A stretch of DNA of 19,719 nucleotides, from NCBI GenBank assembly GCA_044356295.1, contig JBIKWN010000048.1, forward strand, positions 1-19,719, read 5' to 3'. Origin of the DNA: Bdellovibrionota bacterium. Lineage in GTDB: Bacteria > Bdellovibrionota_C > UBA2361 > JBIKWN01. The position numbers and the translations under genes are program-made. Below are positions 75-12,657 of the stretch, piece after piece. A model generated the notes under the pieces. The model did not search any database. It had not been told where the DNA came from and was given only the letters and a program-made list of their open reading frames with translations. Within the stretch, counting starts at the first letter, position 1, and every line of letters begins with the position of its first letter.

Positions 75-1607
75 CTATCGGACAATAGTGCCCAACACCT
101 GCTCGGAAATAACTATACTCTGGGCAGCAGTACCATTAGCAGAGGGCTCAGGGGATTGTCTGGTGAGTCGTAAGAGCTTGAATTCAGCCATCAGGGGATA
201 TGTTTTTTTTAGATATGAAAAAGTATGGTCGATAAAATCCCCCGGTGCATAACCAGGAAAGCGAGAGTTCCATTCAGACCTAAGATATGAGTAATCTGAA
301 GGCATGGCAAAGTAACTTTCAAGTTTATCTGAATTGAATTCACTTCCTTTATCAAGGTCTATCCATATTGATGAATTTTTAGCTCTTCCTAATCGCACAT
401 ACATGTAAACTGTAGTCGGTGCATCAAATGAGAACATCCTCCAATGTTGTGGGATTCTTAAATACTGTATTAAAAATTGATTATATTGAGGAAGTGACCA
501 TGACGGCTCCCTGCCACCACTCATCCAAGATTTATAAGAATACAAAGAATGGATGAAGACATGCGAAATAATCATCACTGATAGAATACCAGTTACAATA
601 TGAGCAATTTTTGAAGAATTATTTTTTTCTACTCGGTTAATATCTGATGATTGGATCTTTTTATCATTAAAAATGAGTGCCCAAAAATAATTTGGTACTA
701 CAAGTATCGATAACGACATCATCACAGGGCTAAAAGGACCAAGTATCAGACAGAGTCCAATACCAAAATGTAAAAATAAAATTACACATGCTCCTATAAG
801 TCGAAATATAAAGGAATAAAACGGAAATAAAATAAGGATTGGCAATGCCCCTTCTAATATCAATACAGTTCGACTTAAAATCTGTAATAGCGAGAAAGAT
901 ACATAGTCACGAATGAGCACACCTATAAAAGTCACACGATCTGGAATCCATAAACTATAATATAGTGCGGTTCCTGTTTGCCATGTTACGCCAGTTTTTG
1001 TTAGGAAATTAAAAGTGTAAATGACTGCTATTGATACAAGACATCCTGCAAAAGCAATTGATGAGCCCAGTGAGTCAGAAAGATCCTCTTTACGCTTTAC
1101 CAAGGGTTTATTCAGAAACATTGGCAGCGAAAATGTGAATCTTTTATCGGTTGGAAGAAGAATAGTCCAAAGTAAAATGAGGTGCAGGACAATTGTTCCC
1201 CCGTTTTCTAATAAAAGGTTTCTGTTATTGATTGAAACCGAACAGAGCAAGGTAAGCACTTTAATCCACACACCTCCGATCCCACAGGTAAATAAAGCGA
1301 ATAAAATTGTAGAAAACAGAAAAAAGAGAATCACTTCATTTGGGGAACTGAATGCATCTAGAAACGAGAAAGCATAATCAACACTTGAAAATAACTTATA
1401 ATGATTAGGGAAAACCCCATTATTAGTATAAAATTCTTTGTAGTGAAAAAATCGAGTCAATACATCAGTCAGCAGAATACAACCGATACTGATTCTAAAT
1501 AGTGCTAATGCCCGCAGATCAAAAAAACAGTATCGATGATACAGAAAAGACAGTATCTTTCTTAAAAAGTGAATACTATTTTGGCTAAAACTACTCATAC
1601 ACTTCAT
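75..1607 (-). CDS. HTTM-domain polytopic membrane protein (SdpB / vitamin K-dependent carboxylase-related), with a C-terminal QxWxMF segment
   Basis: 510-aa ORF with many hydrophobic helices. Motifs DLRALALFRISIG, FYTNNGVFP, NRNLLLENGG, WQTGTALYY, LFLHFGIG and PQHWRMFS are typical of bacterial HTTM proteins. Confidence 0.8.
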   Translation of the reverse strand: MKCMSSFSQNSIHFLRKILSFLYHRYCFFDLRALALFRISIGCILLTDVLTRFFHYKEFYTNNGVFPNHYKLFSSVDYAFSFLDAFSSPNEVILFFLFSTILFALFTCGIGGVWIKVLTLLCSVSINNRNLLLENGGTIVLHLILLWTILLPTDKRFTFSLPMFLNKPLVKRKEDLSDSLGSSIAFAGCLVSIAVIYTFNFLTKTGVTWQTGTALYYSLWIPDRVTFIGVLIRDYVSFSLLQILSRTVLILEGALPILILFPFYSFIFRLIGACVILFLHFGIGLCLILGPFSPVMMSLSILVVPNYFWALIFNDKKIQSSDINRVEKNNSSKIAHIVTGILSVMIISHVFIHSLYSYKSWMSGGREPSWSLPQYNQFLIQYLRIPQHWRMFSFDAPTTVYMYVRLGRAKNSSIWIDLDKGSEFNSDKLESYFAMPSDYSYLRSEWNSRFPGYAPGDFIDHTFSYLKKTYPLMAEFKLLRLTRQSPEPSANGTAAQSIVISEQVLGTIVR

Positions 1608-1663: not shown

Positions 1664-3070
1664 ATGGGGCTAAAAATCACGAAACGTCAAAAGAGTATAC
1701 TGATAAGTATCTTCTTGATTACCAGTATCTGGTTACTAGCGGTTACCCCTATATTTAGAATTCCGGTTGTAGGAATTGCGGATAATGGGGATTTTTATAG
1801 GGTTATAAACCCAATAGGATTAGAAAAAATAGGTGGTCGCGAAAGTGGCGACCCAGTACTGCTTACAGAGTACTCAAAACAGAGGCCTATTTTTCGTCGA
1901 CTTTCATCTACGGCAAGTATAGTACCCTTTTTTATAAAGGAATTTCATACATTTCTGTTTGGCATAAGTAAGAACTTAGATATCCAGATTCTTGGAATAA
2001 CACTTTCGATTCTATTCCTGTTCTGTATGCTATTTGCTCACTTTTATCTGCTTATTCCAATTTCGACAATTGGTGTGATCTGTTTTATCTTCTCGGATCC
2101 AAGTTACCTACTCTATCTAAATAGTTTCCTTTCAGAAGGAACTGTTTTTATCAGTTTATTTTTATTAATCTGCTTTTTGATTTCCCACCGTCAAAAAAAA
2201 TCTAAACTGCTTCTCTATTTTATTTTCTTTATTTTTCTTTTTACGAAACATCACTTTGCAATTCTTGGATTACCTTTCTTTGTTTTTTATAGCTTACTAC
2301 ACCGCAGAACAGATTATGGGTTGCTGGTTATTGCTCTCGTAGCTCTTTATTTTTCATTCATTTCGCTCAATCAATTTAGAAAGATCAATATTTTTCTGCC
2401 TAATGCGTTCAATCGATTCGCATCCGGTCCTGCAGCCCTCAGTGACAATCCCACAAAGATACTTATAAACCTTAATCTAAAACCAGAATATCAAAAATAT
2501 GTAAATGCTAATTTCTGGTCACTCAATCTTGCAGATAATAATACGAGTGTTGAATTAAAAGAGATTATTAAAGTACCAATACACGCAATTGCTTTTGAAT
2601 ACTTCAAAGACTCTTCGGTTTTATCAAAGATTTCAGTCAAAGCTCTGGATGCAGTCGCTTTCAGTAAAATTTACACCGCTGCGCACTACTCTGATGTAAG
2701 TCACCCCCTGGAAAGATTTAGACGAGCCATTAGTTTTCGAGACTTTCTAGAAGAATGTTTCTCGAAGTATAAAATAACAACTTGGCTGATACTGATGTTC
2801 TTTGTTTTTTCTGCATTCTGTATCTCAAAAAGACGCATTCGTTATAGTATGGTCTTTCTTTCCTTATCAACGTTACTGATTGTTTCATCAAGTATTCTTG
2901 GTGATGGGCTTTGGGATTTTGAACGACATACTCTGTTGGCAAGGTTTTGTTTTGATATCCTGATAGGCTTATCAATCTATAGTATAATGCAGCACTGTTA
3001 TTATTATTTTTCCTCTACAAGATTCATTCACCAAAGAAAGTTTCTAAGAATTACGGAAGAAAAAGGCTAA
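1664..3070 (+). CDS. WsfD-like polytopic membrane protein, putative GT-C fold (lipid-linked sugar) glycosyltransferase
   Basis: 468 aa with many TM segments. GIADNGDFYRV in the first external loop and YLLYLNSFLSE resemble the WsfD-like family as I recall it. Confidence 0.6.
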   Translation: MGLKITKRQKSILISIFLITSIWLLAVTPIFRIPVVGIADNGDFYRVINPIGLEKIGGRESGDPVLLTEYSKQRPIFRRLSSTASIVPFFIKEFHTFLFGISKNLDIQILGITLSILFLFCMLFAHFYLLIPISTIGVICFIFSDPSYLLYLNSFLSEGTVFISLFLLICFLISHRQKKSKLLLYFIFFIFLFTKHHFAILGLPFFVFYSLLHRRTDYGLLVIALVALYFSFISLNQFRKINIFLPNAFNRFASGPAALSDNPTKILINLNLKPEYQKYVNANFWSLNLADNNTSVELKEIIKVPIHAIAFEYFKDSSVLSKISVKALDAVAFSKIYTAAHYSDVSHPLERFRRAISFRDFLEECFSKYKITTWLILMFFVFSAFCISKRRIRYSMVFLSLSTLLIVSSSILGDGLWDFERHTLLARFCFDILIGLSIYSIMQHCYYYFSSTRFIHQRKFLRITEEKG

Positions 3071-6000
3071 GCTTCCAAGCTAATGTTTCAAAACTTTTTA
3101 AATCCTCGATATCATGACCACCTTGATAGAGATAACTTACCGTGTGTGGTTTTGTATATGCTGGATCGTATTGCCCTCTGACGGTAAGAATCGGAATTTT
3201 CTTTGATTCTGCTAAAGCCTGCAAAGCGCCTTTATCATTACCAACTTGGTCGATGATTGCATCAACAGCGATTCCTTCTTCTAATAGAATTTTTTGTATT
3301 TTATTGCCATAAGAAACTGAATAGCTGACAATTTTTTGATAGTTGTTATGAGTTGCATATTTTTTGACGGCTTTAATAGTAGAAGCTAAAGCTTCTCGAT
3401 TAATACTTTTCTCGAACTTTTTTCCGTAGCCAATCGATCCTGGGTAATTTACCGCCAATACACGGTATCCTAAATTATTAAGCAGATGAAAATATGGGTT
3501 ATATCTTGGCGAAACATTTTCGTTTGGTCCTCCATGCCACCAAACAATTAATTTTTTTAGTGATGGATCGCCAAAAAGCCATGCTGGAATTGTTTCACTC
3601 TTGGAATCAGTTGGAATTTCAACAGCATTGATAGCGATTTGTTGATGAACCGGCCGATCAACAAGGAACTCCCATGTAGAGTCATTACCTAAACGACCGA
3701 GAGTTCGTGGATGGGTACTGTCTGAAATAATTCCGTAAATATCTTGATCAACTTTTACTGCACTATAAACAATAATATTTTTATCAGATTTATATTTAGA
3801 AGTTTCAATCCAATAGAAAGAACGATCTGCAAAACGCTTAAAATCTTGATTGGTATCAAGAAGGTCGAAATCTTCTTGTTCTCGAGCTGTGGCAGTAAGT
3901 TCAATAACCCCAGTTTCTTGCAAATTAATTGAGAAGGATCCCACTCGATCATCTGTTATACCTCTGCCTGTCAAACCGAAAGTGCCATCGGGAAGTGTAA
4001 AGATTTCACGCGCATCTGTTAAATTTTTTAGATTGTTTTCAGTGCAATCATTTTTATGATCATTGCCATTACAAATTATTACAATTGGATTCGTTCGAGC
4101 ACTCTTAATCCCTGCAAATACACCTTGATTGTTGATTGCGCAAAGATCAAAACTCTCAATGGCAACAGTCGAGTCAAGTTGTCGATCCATTGAACTACCA
4201 AGATAGGTGATAACTCTTGAACCATTTTCCTCAAAAGAAATTTTTCTTGAATGTGAATTAAGGCAAATCTTTCCAGTATCAGAATTGCCCTTGTTAATTT
4301 TTGTTAATTCAGTTGTGGCTTTATTATAAACATATAAATTATTTGATTGAGCTTGTGTTGAGACTGATAGGAGCAATACGTGTTGTTCACTCAAAGCATC
4401 AATGACCATCAAATGAGAATTACTGAAATCCAAAGAGGCAGGGATTTGCAATGGAAAAATTTCATTTTTATAATAAACCTTAGGGCGCATGAGCCCATTT
4501 TGATCTGTTTGTGCAAAAAGAACTTTGCCATACCAGTTGATTACTTTACTCTGGGATTTTTTCCATTCTATTGGAATAACGGCATCATCAAAAAAAAGAT
4601 GAGGACATTGTACGAGATAATTTTTAAGTGAATTCTTGGTTTCGTATGAAAGTGCATAAAAAGAAGCAAAAATTTCTATCTGCCTTATCAATTGCTGCGA
4701 GCATTCTTTTGACGAATTAAGTAGAGTTGTAAATTGCTGATTTGCTTCTGCACTATCCCCTGTACGGCTCGCATGAACTGCAGAAATTTCATACGTCGAA
4801 TATTGCTTGGGAAAATAACGCTTCTGTTGTTCAACTAGGGATTGGGCTTCGCTTGTCTTGTTCAGGTTAAGAAACTGATGAAGCTGTTCAGTAACTTTTA
4901 CATTGGTCCAATCCCAATATGTTTTGACTTCGTAAGTTTCATACGGATTTTTATCTAGTTTCGAAATTTGGTTTAATGCAAGAATCCGCAAAGGCATCTG
5001 ATAAAAACACAGACAGATAAATACGACTCCGGTTGCTTTTGCTACATACCATCTTGCTTGGCTCGCAATATTGAATTTTTTTTCAACAAGAAACGTAAAG
5101 ATTAAACAATAAATAATTAAACTTATTAATCTACTTGAAATAGGCTCTGAAAATGCCTGTATACTGACAGCAAATAAACTCAACAATAGTAATGCTTTTT
5201 TTGTTGTAAGCTTCTTCCATCGTAGCAGAATTGCAACTGGCGTAATCAAAAAGAACGTCAAATAAGCCAATCCTCCAATGATTCCTAATTCAACAAAATA
5301 CCTCAGGTATTCATTCATCACGACATTAAAAGACCCCTTGAGTATTCCAAATGAAGAATCAAGAGATAAATCAGAAAGCCTAATTACCAATTGTTTAGCG
5401 CCTATTCCAGTCAAAGGGGATTCATAAAAAAACTGTAATGTTTTCTGCCAAATTAATAGTCGCCCACTCCATGCTGATGGATTAAATATTGAAGTTAGAC
5501 TATTGGTATAGGGACTTGCTGAATTCCAATGTAAGAAATCTTTTAAAGAAAACGCCAAAAGAACAGTACTGATTCCAATGAAACAGATCCCTCTCCTGTG
5601 TTTTTGGCGATAAAAGAGTTTACGAAGTGACGGAATAAGAACAAACATTGCAAAATAAAATGCAAGAATTACCCACCCAGATCTGCATCGAAAAAGTACA
5701 ATACAAACAAGAGACAAAATAATATTTAAACTTGTCCAGAGTCGAATAAAAAAACTTCGTGATAGCAGAAGGAGATAGACACCCAGTGGCAATGCTTGAA
5801 GTAGGAATAAAACAAGTTGATTTCTAAATCCAAACGCTGAACCAAGCCAATCACCACTCACTATTGAGATTGGCATATAAAACCTATTAATAAACATCAA
5901 CAGCAACAAAAGCGTTACAGTAAAATTTATTGAGTAGATGACACCAAGTAAGGTGAATTTTTTCTGTTCAATAAGAATAATAATAGAAAGCAACAGTAAC

Positions 6001-6260
6001 CAGATTCCAATTTCATCAAGTACTAATCCAGGATTTGGAATATTGAACAATTGAAGAAATAATTCACCAACTATGAAATATAAAGGAAAAAGAAGGATCC
6101 ATGGCACATATTTATACCTTGGTCTTATTTCAAAAAAACTTACTATGACAAAGGCAGAGGTTAAGAGGCTCAGTGCGATGAAACGGTTGCTAGCTAAAGC
6201 TTGAAATCCTTGGAGATTAAGTAAACTACCAAATAAAATAAGGATTAGACTGTAAAACAA
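3051..6260 (-). CDS. Fusion of an O-antigen ligase (Wzy_C)-like membrane domain, a helical TPR-like region, a beta-rich (propeller-like) region and an S9-type alpha/beta hydrolase
   Basis: 1069 aa, TTG start. The first ~420 aa are polytopic, with FGFRNQL, RCRSGW, SGRLLIWQKTLQFFYESPLTGIG and MNEYLRYFVELGIIG. The C-terminus has LIVWWHGGP (H909), GYRVLAVNYPGSIGYG, SVSYG (S983), GQYD (D1032) and GGH (H1049). Confidence 0.8.
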   Translation of the reverse strand: MFYSLILILFGSLLNLQGFQALASNRFIALSLLTSAFVIVSFFEIRPRYKYVPWILLFPLYFIVGELFLQLFNIPNPGLVLDEIGIWLLLLSIIILIEQKKFTLLGVIYSINFTVTLLLLLMFINRFYMPISIVSGDWLGSAFGFRNQLVLFLLQALPLGVYLLLLSRSFFIRLWTSLNIILSLVCIVLFRCRSGWVILAFYFAMFVLIPSLRKLFYRQKHRRGICFIGISTVLLAFSLKDFLHWNSASPYTNSLTSIFNPSAWSGRLLIWQKTLQFFYESPLTGIGAKQLVIRLSDLSLDSSFGILKGSFNVVMNEYLRYFVELGIIGGLAYLTFFLITPVAILLRWKKLTTKKALLLLSLFAVSIQAFSEPISSRLISLIIYCLIFTFLVEKKFNIASQARWYVAKATGVVFICLCFYQMPLRILALNQISKLDKNPYETYEVKTYWDWTNVKVTEQLHQFLNLNKTSEAQSLVEQQKRYFPKQYSTYEISAVHASRTGDSAEANQQFTTLLNSSKECSQQLIRQIEIFASFYALSYETKNSLKNYLVQCPHLFFDDAVIPIEWKKSQSKVINWYGKVLFAQTDQNGLMRPKVYYKNEIFPLQIPASLDFSNSHLMVIDALSEQHVLLLSVSTQAQSNNLYVYNKATTELTKINKGNSDTGKICLNSHSRKISFEENGSRVITYLGSSMDRQLDSTVAIESFDLCAINNQGVFAGIKSARTNPIVIICNGNDHKNDCTENNLKNLTDAREIFTLPDGTFGLTGRGITDDRVGSFSINLQETGVIELTATAREQEDFDLLDTNQDFKRFADRSFYWIETSKYKSDKNIIVYSAVKVDQDIYGIISDSTHPRTLGRLGNDSTWEFLVDRPVHQQIAINAVEIPTDSKSETIPAWLFGDPSLKKLIVWWHGGPNENVSPRYNPYFHLLNNLGYRVLAVNYPGSIGYGKKFEKSINREALASTIKAVKKYATHNNYQKIVSYSVSYGNKIQKILLEEGIAVDAIIDQVGNDKGALQALAESKKIPILTVRGQYDPAYTKPHTVSYLYQGGHDIEDLKSFETLAWKLSLFLP

Positions 6261-6273
6261 TCAACTGTGACAA

Positions 6274-6447
6274 TTATGGAGTTATTACTATCCGTTCATC
6301 CACAGATAAGGTCACAGCAAAACCACCAAATGTGGCAAGTAAAACTTGAGGAGCTTCGTAAGCAAGGACTGGAGATGATTGTGTCTCAAGTGAAGAAGTA
6401 TCTTTCAGTTCTTCTTGTACGAATTTTGATTTATCTGAATCTGCCAT
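6274..6447 (-). CDS. Putative RiPP-type precursor peptide, 57 aa: MADSDKSKFVQEELKDTSSLETQSSPVLAYEAPQVLLATFGGFAVTLSVDERIVITP
   Basis: Small ORF on the same strand as, and between, the modification genes. It contains YEAPQV (6343-6360), matching the YxxPxL RRE-recognition motif. I prefer ATG 6447 to GTG 6477 because a -35/-10 pair overlaps the upstream extension. Confidence 0.7.
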   Translation of the reverse strand: MADSDKSKFVQEELKDTSSLETQSSPVLAYEAPQVLLATFGGFAVTLSVDERIVITP

Positions 6448-6531: not shown

Positions 6532-7785
6532 CTATGTCCTAAGAAACTGACTAATGTGTAAGGTTACCGGTCTATTGAATTCATCGAAAGCATTGTAACA
6601 CTCTAATATTTTAAGCTCTAAATCCTCAATGTTTTGGATCTGGTTATCTCTCAAACAATTGAAATTTGGCAGTTCTAAAATACGACAACTGACCTCAAAA
6701 AGCTTCTCTTCAAATTTGTAACTTTGAGAACAGGTGGTTTCCTTCAATAAATCTTTGCGACTCAAAACTTCTACCATTGTTTGCTGTCCAACAGTTGCCT
6801 CATAGGCAAGAGATAACAAGCTCAGATCTGCAATTAACTTTTCAAGTTCGGAATAATATTTCTCCCTCTTAAGAAAGAAAAATGGGTATTTACTCGTCGT
6901 TAATTTCTTGTAGCGCCTTACTATCGAAAATAGCTCATCAAGCAAACCAAAGCATTGATCGTGTACCGATTGATTTATAACTATTGAATTAATTAACGAC
7001 TGCAGTCGAGTATTTTGAATATCACGTTCAAAAGATTTCCTCATGAATATTGACGTTGCAAGAATATCTTCGAGAGCATTTTCGAAAAAAATGTAAGGCG
7101 GATCAAATAACGGGATTTTTTTAGCAGCAGAAGAAGCCCAGTGGGAAACTTCTTGATACAATCTATTGGCTTCGTTTAGATCAATTGTTGAAGGCAGAAT
7201 AATTGTCAAATCAACATCAGATGAACCTGGAATAATTTCCTTATTCGCATATCGAGAATGAAAATGAAAAATTCCAATATTTTTCTTTTTACACAAAGAT
7301 TCTACATTAAACTTAACAACATCAAGCAAACAGCTCCAAAAAAAGCGAGCAAAACTATAATACTTGAACAAAGAAAAAAACTTTATTAAAAGAGCTTTAA
7401 TTAGTTCTTTAACAGGTTTTAGAATTTTATAACAAAATTCAATGCAGCTCTTGTATGTTTGATCTCTATTGGTTGCCTTCGCTGGAAAAACTCTGCCGAT
7501 ATACATCGATGCCATCACTGGCGGATCTTCATGATGTGATTTTAATGAGCTTGTAATAATTTTTTGGTCTTCAATTCTAACAAACTGATGCCAAATCATT
7601 ATTTGATCACGAATGATAGCAATTATCATTCCTGGACTGAGCTCACTCAGAGGGAATTTTTCAATAAAACATATCTCTGACCGTATGAGTGATGGTTCCA
7701 TACTATCACTCATGACTGGTGCATAAATCCGCTCACCAGAGAAAACTCTTCTTTGGACCTCAAGTAAGATCTGAATCTTTGTCAC
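6532..7785 (-). CDS. S24/S26 (signal-peptidase-like, Ser/His) peptidase domain fused to a Pol-beta-type nucleotidyltransferase domain
   Basis: aa 1-100 contain VMSDSMEPSL (S28), LSPGMIIAI, WHQFV (H66) and EDPPV...YIGRV. aa ~170-200 contain FHSRYANKEIIPGSSDVDLTII (D190, D192). The GTG start overlaps the upstream TAG (TAGTG). Confidence 0.7.
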   Translation of the reverse strand: MTKIQILLEVQRRVFSGERIYAPVMSDSMEPSLIRSEICFIEKFPLSELSPGMIIAIIRDQIMIWHQFVRIEDQKIITSSLKSHHEDPPVMASMYIGRVFPAKATNRDQTYKSCIEFCYKILKPVKELIKALLIKFFSLFKYYSFARFFWSCLLDVVKFNVESLCKKKNIGIFHFHSRYANKEIIPGSSDVDLTIILPSTIDLNEANRLYQEVSHWASSAAKKIPLFDPPYIFFENALEDILATSIFMRKSFERDIQNTRLQSLINSIVINQSVHDQCFGLLDELFSIVRRYKKLTTSKYPFFFLKREKYYSELEKLIADLSLLSLAYEATVGQQTMVEVLSRKDLLKETTCSQSYKFEEKLFEVSCRILELPNFNCLRDNQIQNIEDLELKILECYNAFDEFNRPVTLHISQFLRT

Positions 7786-9230
7786 TACACCAATACCCCA
7801 ATGTTACGAAGATTTTCAGTAAGCAAAGAAAAATCGTTAGCGATGACTCCTTTATCAATATTATACTTTTCACTCGTGGTATTAATCGTAGTTTCTGCAT
7901 CTTTGGTTGAAAGATAGGTCAGAAGCATGAATCGCGCAGTGTGATTAAGTGTAAATCCAGTATTTCCTAGAAGATCTTTTTCATTCCACGCCACGATTCG
8001 AACAATTTCTGGAGTAATGGCAATTCGAAACGCAGCTTGTAAGAGAGTTGGCGTTTGAGATGGAATGCTACTTAGCAAACAATCTTTTTTGATACGTTTC
8101 TCAAAAATAGATGAAATCCACCACCCAATCCAACGCGTTATATGGGCAACAAATGAAAAAAGATAATCTTTGTTCAAAGCTTTTGGTAACGAAGGAAAAG
8201 AGAACCCCCAATAGGTAGGCGCTACGATACCAAGTGAAGGGAGCCACTTTTTAATCATACGTCTATCCCAATACGCTTGTCTAAAAAGTGATCCAAAATA
8301 TCGATATAGGGAACTATGTCCAAGATCTTTGGTAATGACCTCAGCGATGAATGCAATGCATCCACCGAAGTTCAAACATTGAAAACTAAGATCAACATCC
8401 TCCGACCTGCCTAAGGTGGTATCAAAAAATATGTTATTATCAATTAAAAAATCTTTCCGAATCATGACAGCAGCTGTATCGAAAAATGGGATCGGCAATC
8501 TCTTTGCATTTGCAAATCCTTTTATAGACCAATGATTCATCTGATCATGATGTGTTTTTAAGATTCCTCGACTCAAAATTGCTGAGTACTGAATGGCTGA
8601 CTGAACAGCTACAATTTCATCAAGTTCAAACCCAGATAAAGTTTTCTCTATCCATTGTCTTCCAAGTTGAACATCACTATCTATAAAAGCAATAAATTTT
8701 CCCCTTGCAGCTCGAAGTCCCCTATTTCGTGCATATGAACGTGATTTTCTTTTTTCATCTAATATAATCACAGGATATTTAGAAGCCAGAAAAGATGTCC
8801 TATCAGTTGAATTATTATTTACAACAATGACTTCAAAGTGATGTTTTGTTTCTTGATTAAAAATGGATTCAAGGAGTGCTTCTATACTAGCTTCAGCATT
8901 AAAAGCTGGAATGACGAATGAAATAAATGGGTTTATAGGTGATCTAGCTAACATGTTAGCTTTATAGAGTTGAAATAAAACATCAATTAAATCATTTTGA
9001 ATTGATTCTTTATCAACAGTCGGAAATTGAGTAATTAAGAACTCAAGAATTTTATCTTGAGTTCCATATGTTTGAATTAAGGTTGGAAGGTGTGACCAGA
9101 TCCCTGTTAGCGTAATTGTTTTTCCGCCCTGGAAATGAATAATTTCAACAGTAGTATCATCTTTGCTGAAATAGACATCCGGATGAAGAATAAAGCCATG
9201 CTTGATAAAATCGAACAGACTTTTCTTCAT
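7785..9230 (-). CDS. GT2 glycosyltransferase flanked by N- and C-terminal PqqD/RRE-like domains
   Basis: GT2 core: ISFVIPAFNAEASI, EVIVVNNNSTDRT, ARNRG, FIAFIDSD, RSEDVDL. aa ~12-95 (LHPDVYFSK..TLTGIWS..ESIQNDLIDVLFQLYKANML) and aa ~405-481 (FTLNHTARFML..EKYNIDKGVIANDFSLLTENLRNIGVL) follow the three-strand/three-helix PqqD pattern. Confidence 0.8.
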   Translation of the reverse strand: MKKSLFDFIKHGFILHPDVYFSKDDTTVEIIHFQGGKTITLTGIWSHLPTLIQTYGTQDKILEFLITQFPTVDKESIQNDLIDVLFQLYKANMLARSPINPFISFVIPAFNAEASIEALLESIFNQETKHHFEVIVVNNNSTDRTSFLASKYPVIILDEKRKSRSYARNRGLRAARGKFIAFIDSDVQLGRQWIEKTLSGFELDEIVAVQSAIQYSAILSRGILKTHHDQMNHWSIKGFANAKRLPIPFFDTAAVMIRKDFLIDNNIFFDTTLGRSEDVDLSFQCLNFGGCIAFIAEVITKDLGHSSLYRYFGSLFRQAYWDRRMIKKWLPSLGIVAPTYWGFSFPSLPKALNKDYLFSFVAHITRWIGWWISSIFEKRIKKDCLLSSIPSQTPTLLQAAFRIAITPEIVRIVAWNEKDLLGNTGFTLNHTARFMLLTYLSTKDAETTINTTSEKYNIDKGVIANDFSLLTENLRNIGVLV

Positions 9231-11908: not shown

Positions 11909-11952
11909 ACTGAAAAACAGTATAGCCTAAAACTTATTCCGACTCGAATTAT

Positions 11953-12657
11953 CTAAGACTCAGCTTTCACGATAACCTGCCAAGCCCCCTTCTCGCCCTC
12001 ATGCACTGGCAGCTCAGAATCCAGAGCAATCGAGAAAGAACGAGTTTGTTTTGGCTCAATAGTTACATCACTCAATATGACCTCTGTGGTAGCTTCAGGA
12101 TCATGAACTGAAAGATCCAAATAATCGCCACTTTTTACCCACTGAAACTCAACGGTTAATGGAAGATTTGAAATTGGATAATATCCTGTATTTTCGATCG
12201 TTCCATTAATCTTAGAACCAGTTGTATCACTGACTAACATTGTATCTTTAATAGTAACAAACTTAGATGGTGGCACTGATTTTAAAAAACCTTCAGCATC
12301 CGATCCCCACAACAGATCAACTTGATAATCAGTAAAGCCTTCTGCATCGGCAGAAAGTTGAAGCTGTTCACCTTTCTGACTTTCTTCGAAAGGAACAAAA
12401 GATTCACCAAGGTCAGTTCCATTTTTTATAGTTTTAAGCCGCAGTACTGAGGGTGCCGATACCTCAGAAGTAAACTGTTCAACGGTGGCTTTAATAAAGA
12501 GCTTTTTACCATCAAAGACTTCATCGTCTATGCGAAGTTGATACGGAGCATCCGTATCTGATTGAGCCAGCGGCGGGCGTACCTCTTTACTGGAACACCC
12601 AGTAAAAATCAAAAGCAAAAGAATTAAAAAAATTTTCTTTCGAGGCAAAGCAATCAT
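11953..12657 (-). CDS. Hypothetical lipoprotein with two beta-rich domains
   Basis: Signal peptide with lipobox IFTGC; beta-rich body including INGTIENTG; ATGA overlap with the upstream gene. Confidence 0.65.
   Translation of the reverse strand: MIALPRKKIFLILLLLIFTGCSSKEVRPPLAQSDTDAPYQLRIDDEVFDGKKLFIKATVEQFTSEVSAPSVLRLKTIKNGTDLGESFVPFEESQKGEQLQLSADAEGFTDYQVDLLWGSDAEGFLKSVPPSKFVTIKDTMLVSDTTGSKINGTIENTGYYPISNLPLTVEFQWVKSGDYLDLSVHDPEATTEVILSDVTIEPKQTRSFSIALDSELPVHEGEKGAWQVIVKAES

Follow-up and report, generated by a model that had tools for sequence, protein, structure and literature searches.

The closest known systems to the locus described here are the linear polyphosphorylated peptide (LPP) clusters of Bacillota, first described in 2026 and built from LppA, LppK, LppB, LppS, LppD and LppN (PMC13381572). 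In the parts of that paper drawn on here, a YxxPxV box of the leader peptide is gripped by a RiPP recognition element (RRE; RiPP, a peptide made on ribosomes and then post-translationally modified), and residue D70 of LppB bonds the leader tyrosine. The peptidase LppS cleaves only with LppB and needs S29, H68 and D93, core Ser3 is the site phosphorylated by the kinase LppK, and no activity was seen for LppN (PMC13381572). The same parts leave the final product and the role of the nucleotidyltransferase (NTase) unidentified, and their authors suspect a partner outside the core cluster (PMC13381572). Here we describe a three-gene cassette in a 19,719-nucleotide stretch of Bdellovibrionota DNA (the window; contig JBIKWN010000048.1 of assembly GCA_044356295.1). 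In order, its genes encode a glycosyltransferase of family 2 (GT2) with an RRE-type domain at each end, an S26 peptidase fused to an NTase, and a candidate precursor peptide of 57 aa. Because several defining LPP features fail, we regard the cassette as a variant of the LPP clusters. We consider it just about probable that it encodes a RiPP pathway that resembles LPP, lacks a cyclase and has a glycosyltransferase of its own that docks on the leader, and whose product is a short linear glyco/phospho-peptide. From the domains, catalytic motifs, gene order and co-occurrence observed, we infer that the GT2 may glycosylate a peptide.

The likeness to LPP comprises a YxxPxV leader, an RRE, a kinase resembling HprK, an NTase, a SipW-like S26 peptidase with a Ser-His-Asp triad, a link to polysaccharide loci and the lack of a lasso cyclase. 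However, the RRE is discrete in the LPP clusters as published, whereas here it is fused, and a second RRE is fused to a dedicated GT2; the LPP neighbourhood table counts GT2 only 19 times, against 140 for NTP_transf_5 (PMC13381572). The LPP transferase is PF14907 (NTP_transf_5), while the one in the window is of the Pol-beta/KNTase type and fused to the peptidase; PF14907 had no match in the cassette at E up to 5. An MsbA-like exporter is described for LPP, but there is none in the cassette, and a Wzm/Wzt-like permease stands beside the kinase. That kinase lies on another contig here, and the HQxIxFET motif of LPP leaders is absent. The LPP supplement also includes one Bdellovibrionales S26 peptidase with two discrete RREs, outside the main cluster (PMC13381572).

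Pseudomycoidin shares the pairing of a kinase with a nucleotidyltransferase. PsmK and PsmN produce a phospho-hexose, PsmN being required for the hexose, and the authors leave open substrate supply to a separate glycosyltransferase (PMC6993621). However, as described, pseudomycoidin is a lasso peptide with B1, B2 and C proteins, whereas the cassette has no B2 or adjacent cyclase and has a GT2 built in. We rejected a lasso peptide reading of the cassette: PF13471 (B2) had 0 matches in the genome (93.6% complete), and PF00733 (cyclase) matches occur only outside the window, on other contigs. Lasso cores carry Asp or Glu at position 7-9. With Thr46 of the window peptide taken as residue -2, these positions hold Val, Ile and Thr.

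Three further comparisons concern the glycosyltransferase itself. MftF is a GT2 with a predicted transmembrane helix that oligoglucosylates a RiPP-derived core (PMC7491314). It is the best NCBIfam match (TIGR03965) of the window protein, at 79.9 bits against a cut-off of 280, and a mycofactocin system was rejected: no mft genes were seen in the window scans (the rest of the genome was not searched for mftA-E). SunS shares the glycosylation of a ribosomal peptide by a GT2, but the window protein scores 18.8 bits against the cut-off of 350 for TIGR04195, and the fold match to SunS (Z 13.5) ranks below many glycan enzymes. The window peptide contains no Cys, and a glycocin was rejected as well. 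Fusions of an RRE to a glycosyltransferase are listed without function by RRE-Finder (PMC7470986) and in a 2025 paper naming PF00535 (PMC12710340), so the original prediction for this cassette, made from the sequence and setting glycocin GT2s such as SunS apart as not known RRE fusions, was overstated on this point. Among the fusions as listed in the parts of these papers drawn on here, no two-RRE form and no S26-NTase partner was seen. In the literature searched, which covers few subscription journals, we found no characterised glycosyltransferase that docks a leader via its own RRE.

The RRE-GT2-RRE protein

The features of the cassette, in window coordinates, are as follows.

7785..9230, minus strand: RRE-GT2-RRE gene (P0001), an open reading frame (ORF) of 481 aa and the first gene of the cassette
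8940..9200, minus strand: N-terminal RRE, about aa 11-97; three predicted strands and three helices; TbiB1 match
8091..8933, minus strand: GT2 domain (GT-A fold), about aa 100-380; PF00535, D184-S-D186, E277-D278
7788..8039, minus strand: C-terminal RRE, about aa 398-481; PF05402 and NF033530 stretches; PqqD, TbiB1 and TfuB1 matches
7474..7785, minus strand: serine peptidase domain, soluble and of S24/S26 fold, aa 1-104 of the second protein; Ser28, His66, Asp87
6532..7353, minus strand: Pol-beta-superfamily NTase domain and helical bundle; G187, S189, D190, D192
6274..6447, minus strand: candidate precursor peptide, 57 aa; Y30-x-x-P33-x-V35 leader box, conserved Thr46

The original prediction had placed RRE-like domains at both ends of an intact-looking GT2 with DSD and ED motifs, coupled to an S26 peptidase, and our data bear this out; its reading of the enzyme as a leader-directed peptide glycosyltransferase is supported in part. 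The cassette also holds a leader-bearing peptide gene, which that prediction missed. A PqqD/RRE-type domain at each end of the GT2 is confirmed. PF05402 (PqqD) scores 31.3 bits over two stretches of whole P0001, above its gathering score of 23.4, and both isolated ends score below it, at 18.7 bits (E 0.0023) for the N-terminal and 20.7 bits (E 0.00053) for the C-terminal end. The top PDB sequence match of the N-terminal domain is the lasso RRE TbiB1 (E 0.037), and the top three of the C-terminal profile are PqqD, TbiB1 and TfuB1 (E 0.0019-0.0093). Aligned with hhalign to a profile of 15 discrete RREs from relatives, the two domains reach 86% (N-terminal) and 97% (C-terminal). All 17 RRE rows in the alignment share an aspartate in the last helix, which resembles LppB D70 by position and may be equivalent to it. 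When the genome was searched with discrete-RRE profiles, only the P0001 gene was clearly matched among 16046 segments, and no further RRE was found there.

An AlphaFold2 (AF2) model of P0001 was built from five sequences. The N-terminal domain is modelled with strands at 19-23, 27-32 and 38-42 and helices at 43-54, 58-68 and 74-90 (block predicted local distance difference test, pLDDT, 73-89), and the strands are antiparallel, as the PqqD/RRE fold requires. For the C-terminal domain the model gives the three helices (block pLDDT 59-83), and residues 377-428, where the strands are expected, fall below a pLDDT of 50. The middle of the model is a GT-A core. A fold search with the whole 481-aa model returned GT-A folds only, with matches at Z 20-22, and gives no readout on the RREs.

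PF00535, the Pfam GT2 family, spans residues 104-262 of P0001 (E 2.5e-28). D184, D186, E277 and D278, from the motifs D184-S185-D186 and E277-D278, are invariant in 11 of 11 aligned rows. In inverting GT2 enzymes the DxD motif binds the metal and the NDP-sugar, and the aspartate of the ED motif is the base.

The peptidase fusion and the candidate precursor

The S26-NTase gene encodes 417 aa, and its GTG start overlaps the GT2 stop codon by one base. The peptidase triad Ser28/His66/Asp87 is invariant in 8 of 8 rows and matches S29/H68/D93 as reported for LppS (PMC13381572). LPP clusters are marked by an archaeal-type signal peptidase with this triad, and the window domain agrees with that feature. 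The domain matches TIGR02228 at E 0.00044, below the cut-off, and its fold matches SipA, LexA, SPase I and SPC-C (Z 8.1-9.3). The NTase motif G-x-S-D-x-D (G187, S189, D190, D192) is likewise invariant in 8 of 8 rows; homologues of this domain match PF01909 and PF18765, and its fold resembles ANT(4')/LinB with a middling Z of up to 7.5. Other searches gave little: the Atlas leads for the second protein consist of PF01909 only, all sub-0.9, a PDB sequence search with the S26-NTase profile returned nothing useful, and homologue searches with S26-NTase found only 2-3 proteins. Plasmid searches gave no S26-NTase match and, for the GT2, only generic GT2s. A stand-alone S24/S26-like ORF on contig C56 lies in a phage-like region and was rejected.

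A peptide ORF with a YxxPx[LVI] box stands beside an RRE, GT2-RRE or S26-NTase gene at 8 of the 8 loci examined, namely the window, the metagenome contig L004, one locus each in genomes G071, G019, G083 and G084, and two in G090; two of the eight peptides were chosen by eye from six-frame listings. As background, 176 of the genome's 7077 short ORFs contain the motif by itself. The window and L004 peptides are identical at 8 of 17 residues from Tyr to Thr (three of the eight with synonymous codon changes) and differ elsewhere. About 10 residues past the box, seven of the eight peptides show a small-hydrophobic-small pattern and, two positions further on, a Thr, Ser, Asn or Glu. This arrangement resembles the (-3,-1) rule of signal peptidases. 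The G071 peptide misfits the small-hydrophobic-small pattern and ends on its Thr, and therefore Thr is more likely a modified core residue than a leader residue.

Read in the LPP register, the window peptide matches at Y-16, P-13, V-11, L-10 and F-3, which would make Thr46 the first core residue. Of the LPP leader consensus YxxPxVLxHQxIxFETxxS it keeps Y, P, V, L, F and the last S in place, but not H-Q, I and E-T; L004 has Gln at the position of that Ser. Complex modelling hints that the C-terminal RRE may bind the 57-aa peptide. The pair scored 0.36 against 0.01 for the best control, with contact agreement of at least 58% and a partner pLDDT of at least 46, and passed a mark that is reached by 116 of 157 solved pairs and 2 of 215 mismatched pairs but, at scores of 0.60 or below, by only 18 of the 157 solved pairs and by both mismatches. 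Likeness to solved RRE-leader complexes may explain this pass. A candidate second precursor on contig C27 was the top leader-profile match and was rejected, since it lacks a YxxP box and has no start codon ahead of the motif.

Relatives and the origin of the double RRE

Full-length homologues of P0001 share its layout. P0004-P0006 have 44-47% identity at 99-100% cover with RRE-GT2-RRE intact, and a fourth homologue, P0007, begins at the GT2 and has a full-length cluster mate. A search of relatives with P0001 at 1e-30 found the own genome only (1 of 61). Two loci from a scan of genome contigs were generic GT2s and were rejected; a metagenome scan gave six loci, of which only L004 held a full-length homologue and the other five were dropped. 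A search of representatives was dominated by multi-GT2 proteins, and four were chosen by eye for C-terminal cover among the 150 listed. On L004 the order is a gene we take to be miaB-like, a BFN-domain gene, a TPR-like gene, the GT2, the S26-NTase and the peptide, with unrelated genes beyond. G002, from the same genus, carries a deletion scar (L087:1-233) in which the first three codons of the GT2 gene run into a 24-codon S26-NTase remnant. Only these joined fragments are kept there, and thus the cassette can be lost as a block. Promoter and terminator scans stayed at chance level.

Among the 124 genomes of our phylum set, the GT2 profile matched five at a threshold of 1e-38, and the S26-NTase profile matched nine, six with long fusions (G000, G019, G071, G083, G084 and G090) and three with a stand-alone S26. 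The phylum GT2 searches scored 14 candidates per genome and missed the window's own RREs, and absences in the phylum are therefore soft. In G071, G090 and G019 the GT2 has an RRE at the C-terminus only; a GT2 of G089, unrelated-looking and with no PqqD match, was dropped. RREs are discrete in G071, G019, G083, G084 and G090. The gene order in G071 and G019 is peptide, discrete RRE, GT2-RRE and S26-NTase, the discrete RRE overlapping the GT2-RRE start by 8 nt and 4 nt, respectively. In G083, G084 and one G090 locus (contig C47), a discrete RRE directly precedes the S26-NTase gene with no adjoining GT2-RRE.

Joining the discrete RRE and GT2-RRE genes of G071 and G019 would give the window protein, and the double RRE is therefore best explained as a formerly discrete RRE gene fused to a GT2-RRE gene. 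Because the C-terminal RRE stays with the GT2 (in G071, G090, G019 and P0143) and the discrete RRE with the peptidase, gene order makes the GT2 the most likely partner of the C-terminal RRE and the S26 peptidase that of the N-terminal RRE. The original prediction, which gave the C-terminal RRE to the peptidase by analogy with the lasso B1/B2 pair, probably had the assignment reversed, and LppB/LppS is the fitting analogy. We infer that the N-terminal RRE partners both the S26 peptidase and the kinase.

Two other arrangements of RREs were seen along the way. Discrete RREs at L033:4591-4977, L059:1342-1755 and L062:1411-1884 carry a leader-like YxxP box fused at their own C-terminus. L053, L054 and L058 hold an RRE, a lasso-type leader peptide and a methyltransferase-like gene, with no cyclase in the 3.2-kb loci; their cores begin Gly-Gly-Ser, and an ADFFG motif is common to all.

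Kinase loci, proposed pathway and rival explanations

No HprK-like kinase lies within the window. Contig C124 of the own genome carries a homologue of the kinases found near the cassette in G083, G084 and G090 (31% identity over 340 residues, E 2e-46), whose likeness to HprK is weak (E 0.003); a PDB sequence search with the kinase profile gave nothing useful. The C124 kinase gene is followed by an ABC-2 permease and an ATPase. Among PDB entries the permease best matches transport permeases, an O-antigen exporter among them, and homologues of the permease match Wzm/RfbD. The kinase family is present in 9 of the 124 phylum genomes, including all six with the S26-NTase fusion; the profile was built from four of those six, G019 (where the match comes in two pieces) and G071 not being included, and the co-occurring genomes are kin and not independent.

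In the pathway we propose, the 57-aa peptide may be held by its YxxPxV box in an RRE, as is known of this motif from lasso and LPP systems. The HprK-like kinase of C124 would phosphorylate a hydroxyl residue close to where leader and core meet, with Thr46 the likeliest, and the GT2, docking the leader via its own C-terminal RRE, would add one or more sugars. By analogy with the hexosylation of phospho-pseudomycoidin, which depends on PsmN, the NTase could help sugar addition, by activating or linking the sugar. The N-terminal RRE would present the leader to the Ser-His-Asp domain of the S26 peptidase, as LppB does for LppS, and the cut would fall just before Thr46 or one residue earlier. A linear glyco/phospho-peptide of about 12 residues would then be exported, perhaps via the Wzm/Wzt-like transporter beside the kinase. 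If this is true, the cassette would provide a leader-programmable peptide glycosylation enzyme, and its two RREs in one chain might split tailoring from cleavage. It also offers a candidate partner for the NTase question of LPP and makes that question testable, in a compact, soluble set of three genes with one defined peptide.

A number of our results weigh against this pathway. The tails after the conserved Thr/Ser position run from 0 to about 30 residues, and the cores are not conserved. Among about 40,000 reported segments, the window peptide comes only 33rd against a leader profile from which it was left out, and 731st once L004 is excluded too, so the wider family likeness of the peptides is not statistically significant and is drawn by eye and from position. 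That MftF is the best NCBIfam match for five of the five GT2-RRE proteins tested favours the pathway, but the scores lie far below the cut-off. Compared with five discrete RREs by hhalign, the N-terminal RRE reaches 40% and the C-terminal RRE 95%, and sequence does not appear to place the N-terminal RRE closer to the discrete RREs than the C-terminal one. G083 and G084 have the RRE, S26-NTase, peptide and kinase with no GT2-RRE match. At four loci (G054, G088, G112 and the second G090 locus) GT2 and/or NTase genes accompany the kinase while neither an RRE nor a peptide is visible, and in the tree the G071 kinase falls together with two of these kinases. A quick tree gives a supported GT2 clade in which 5 of 13 rows lack a detected PqqD domain, including the paralogue beside the own-genome kinase. 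The RRE-less rows and the four kinase loci would also fit a GT2 whose acceptor, in envelope synthesis, is a lipid or a glycan, with the RREs and leader serving solely to assemble or switch a complex that S26 cleavage resets. The peptides are nearly core-less, and the top fold matches of the GT2 model, WrtF, TarP, TarS and hyaluronan synthase, are glycan enzymes, though GT-A fold matches are not indicative of the acceptor. We find this explanation distinctly unlikely: seven of the eight peptides keep a hydroxyl or amide residue directly after the predicted cut site, the GT2 has no clear transmembrane helix (best 19-residue hydropathy 1.59), and LPP, as described, modifies its own peptide directly with the same RRE/S26/kinase set (PMC13381572).

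The exporter beside the kinase, being of the Wzm/Wzt-like, glycan-exporting type, likewise counts against the proposed pathway. It would suit a peptide-primed glycan, in which the peptide is a disposable handle whose Thr or Ser (or its phosphorylated form) primes an oligosaccharide built by the GT2, S26 frees a glycan-bearing stub of one to a few residues, and the Wzm/Wzt-like proteins carry the product to the envelope. In G000, G054 and G084 the gene after the kinase encodes a Wzm-like permease, and in G084 the kinase, permease, ATPase and peptide lie on one strand; the C124 locus faces a surface-polysaccharide locus, with the kinase at its edge, and the cores of G071 and G019 are down to 0-2 residues. 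MftF extends a dipeptide-derived core by as many as nine beta-1,4 glucoses (PMC7491314). However, the usual cargo of Wzm/Wzt is a lipid-linked glycan, and there is no sign of a lipid anchor here. In addition, no Wzm gene was seen adjoining the kinase in G071, G019, G088, G112 or either G090 locus, and the C124 locus is tied to the window cassette by co-occurrence only. We judge a primer unlikely; if true, it would link RiPP logic with the assembly of surface polysaccharides and account for the presence of RRE/S26/kinase modules in polysaccharide loci. The cassette might instead be decaying, its domains real and its pathway no longer working in this organism. Two family motifs that L004 and P0272 keep, Gly-Asp and the Arg after His, are gone from the window S26, a loss that tells against our proposed pathway as well; the S26-NTase protein is also about 210-230 aa shorter than in four relatives, the own-genome kinase sits on a long branch, and G002 combines its deletion scar with a kinase not found (genome 86% complete). 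Yet all frames are open, the catalytic residues are all kept in copies only 35-47% identical, and the kinase retains its P-loop and DD motif, and we consider decay very unlikely.

Several genes near the kinases deserve mention in their own right. On C124, an RRE-less GT2 gene divergent from the kinase (L067:11025-11951) belongs to the same GT2 clade on a long branch, and where the DxD motif should stand it reads DAG; copies of an intergenic repeat lie between two GT2 genes at L067 ~11930-12200, with His/Gly-rich or Arg-rich frames. In G088, L086:732-3170 encodes an 812-aa fusion of a PF14907 nucleotidyltransferase, a PqqD domain and an HprK-like domain. L081, L083 and L084 hold sets of kinase, NTase-like and GT2 genes in which neither an RRE nor a peptide is visible and which may represent a sister system that works without a peptide; among them are one NTase-GT2 fusion and two sets with a flavin oxidoreductase. 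Membrane glycosyltransferase-like genes also occur near the kinase in several relatives.

Downstream of the cassette, the window carries three genes that we rejected as members because L004 has unrelated genes there. The first (3051-6260, minus strand) encodes a 1069-aa protein with an O-antigen-ligase-like membrane domain (PF04932) and a weak S9 peptidase-like C-terminus; it begins 14 bases past the peptide gene and is absent from L004. The second (1664-3070, plus strand) encodes a WsfD-like GT-C hexose transferase, above the NF051875 cut-off. The third (75-1607, minus strand) encodes a 510-aa membrane protein without a Pfam or NCBIfam match, which presumably resembles HTTM-domain proteins. 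On L004 itself, the peptide gene adjoins a 315-aa ORF (L004:5680-6627, minus strand) with a cysteine-rich start and a long TTNQ repeat.

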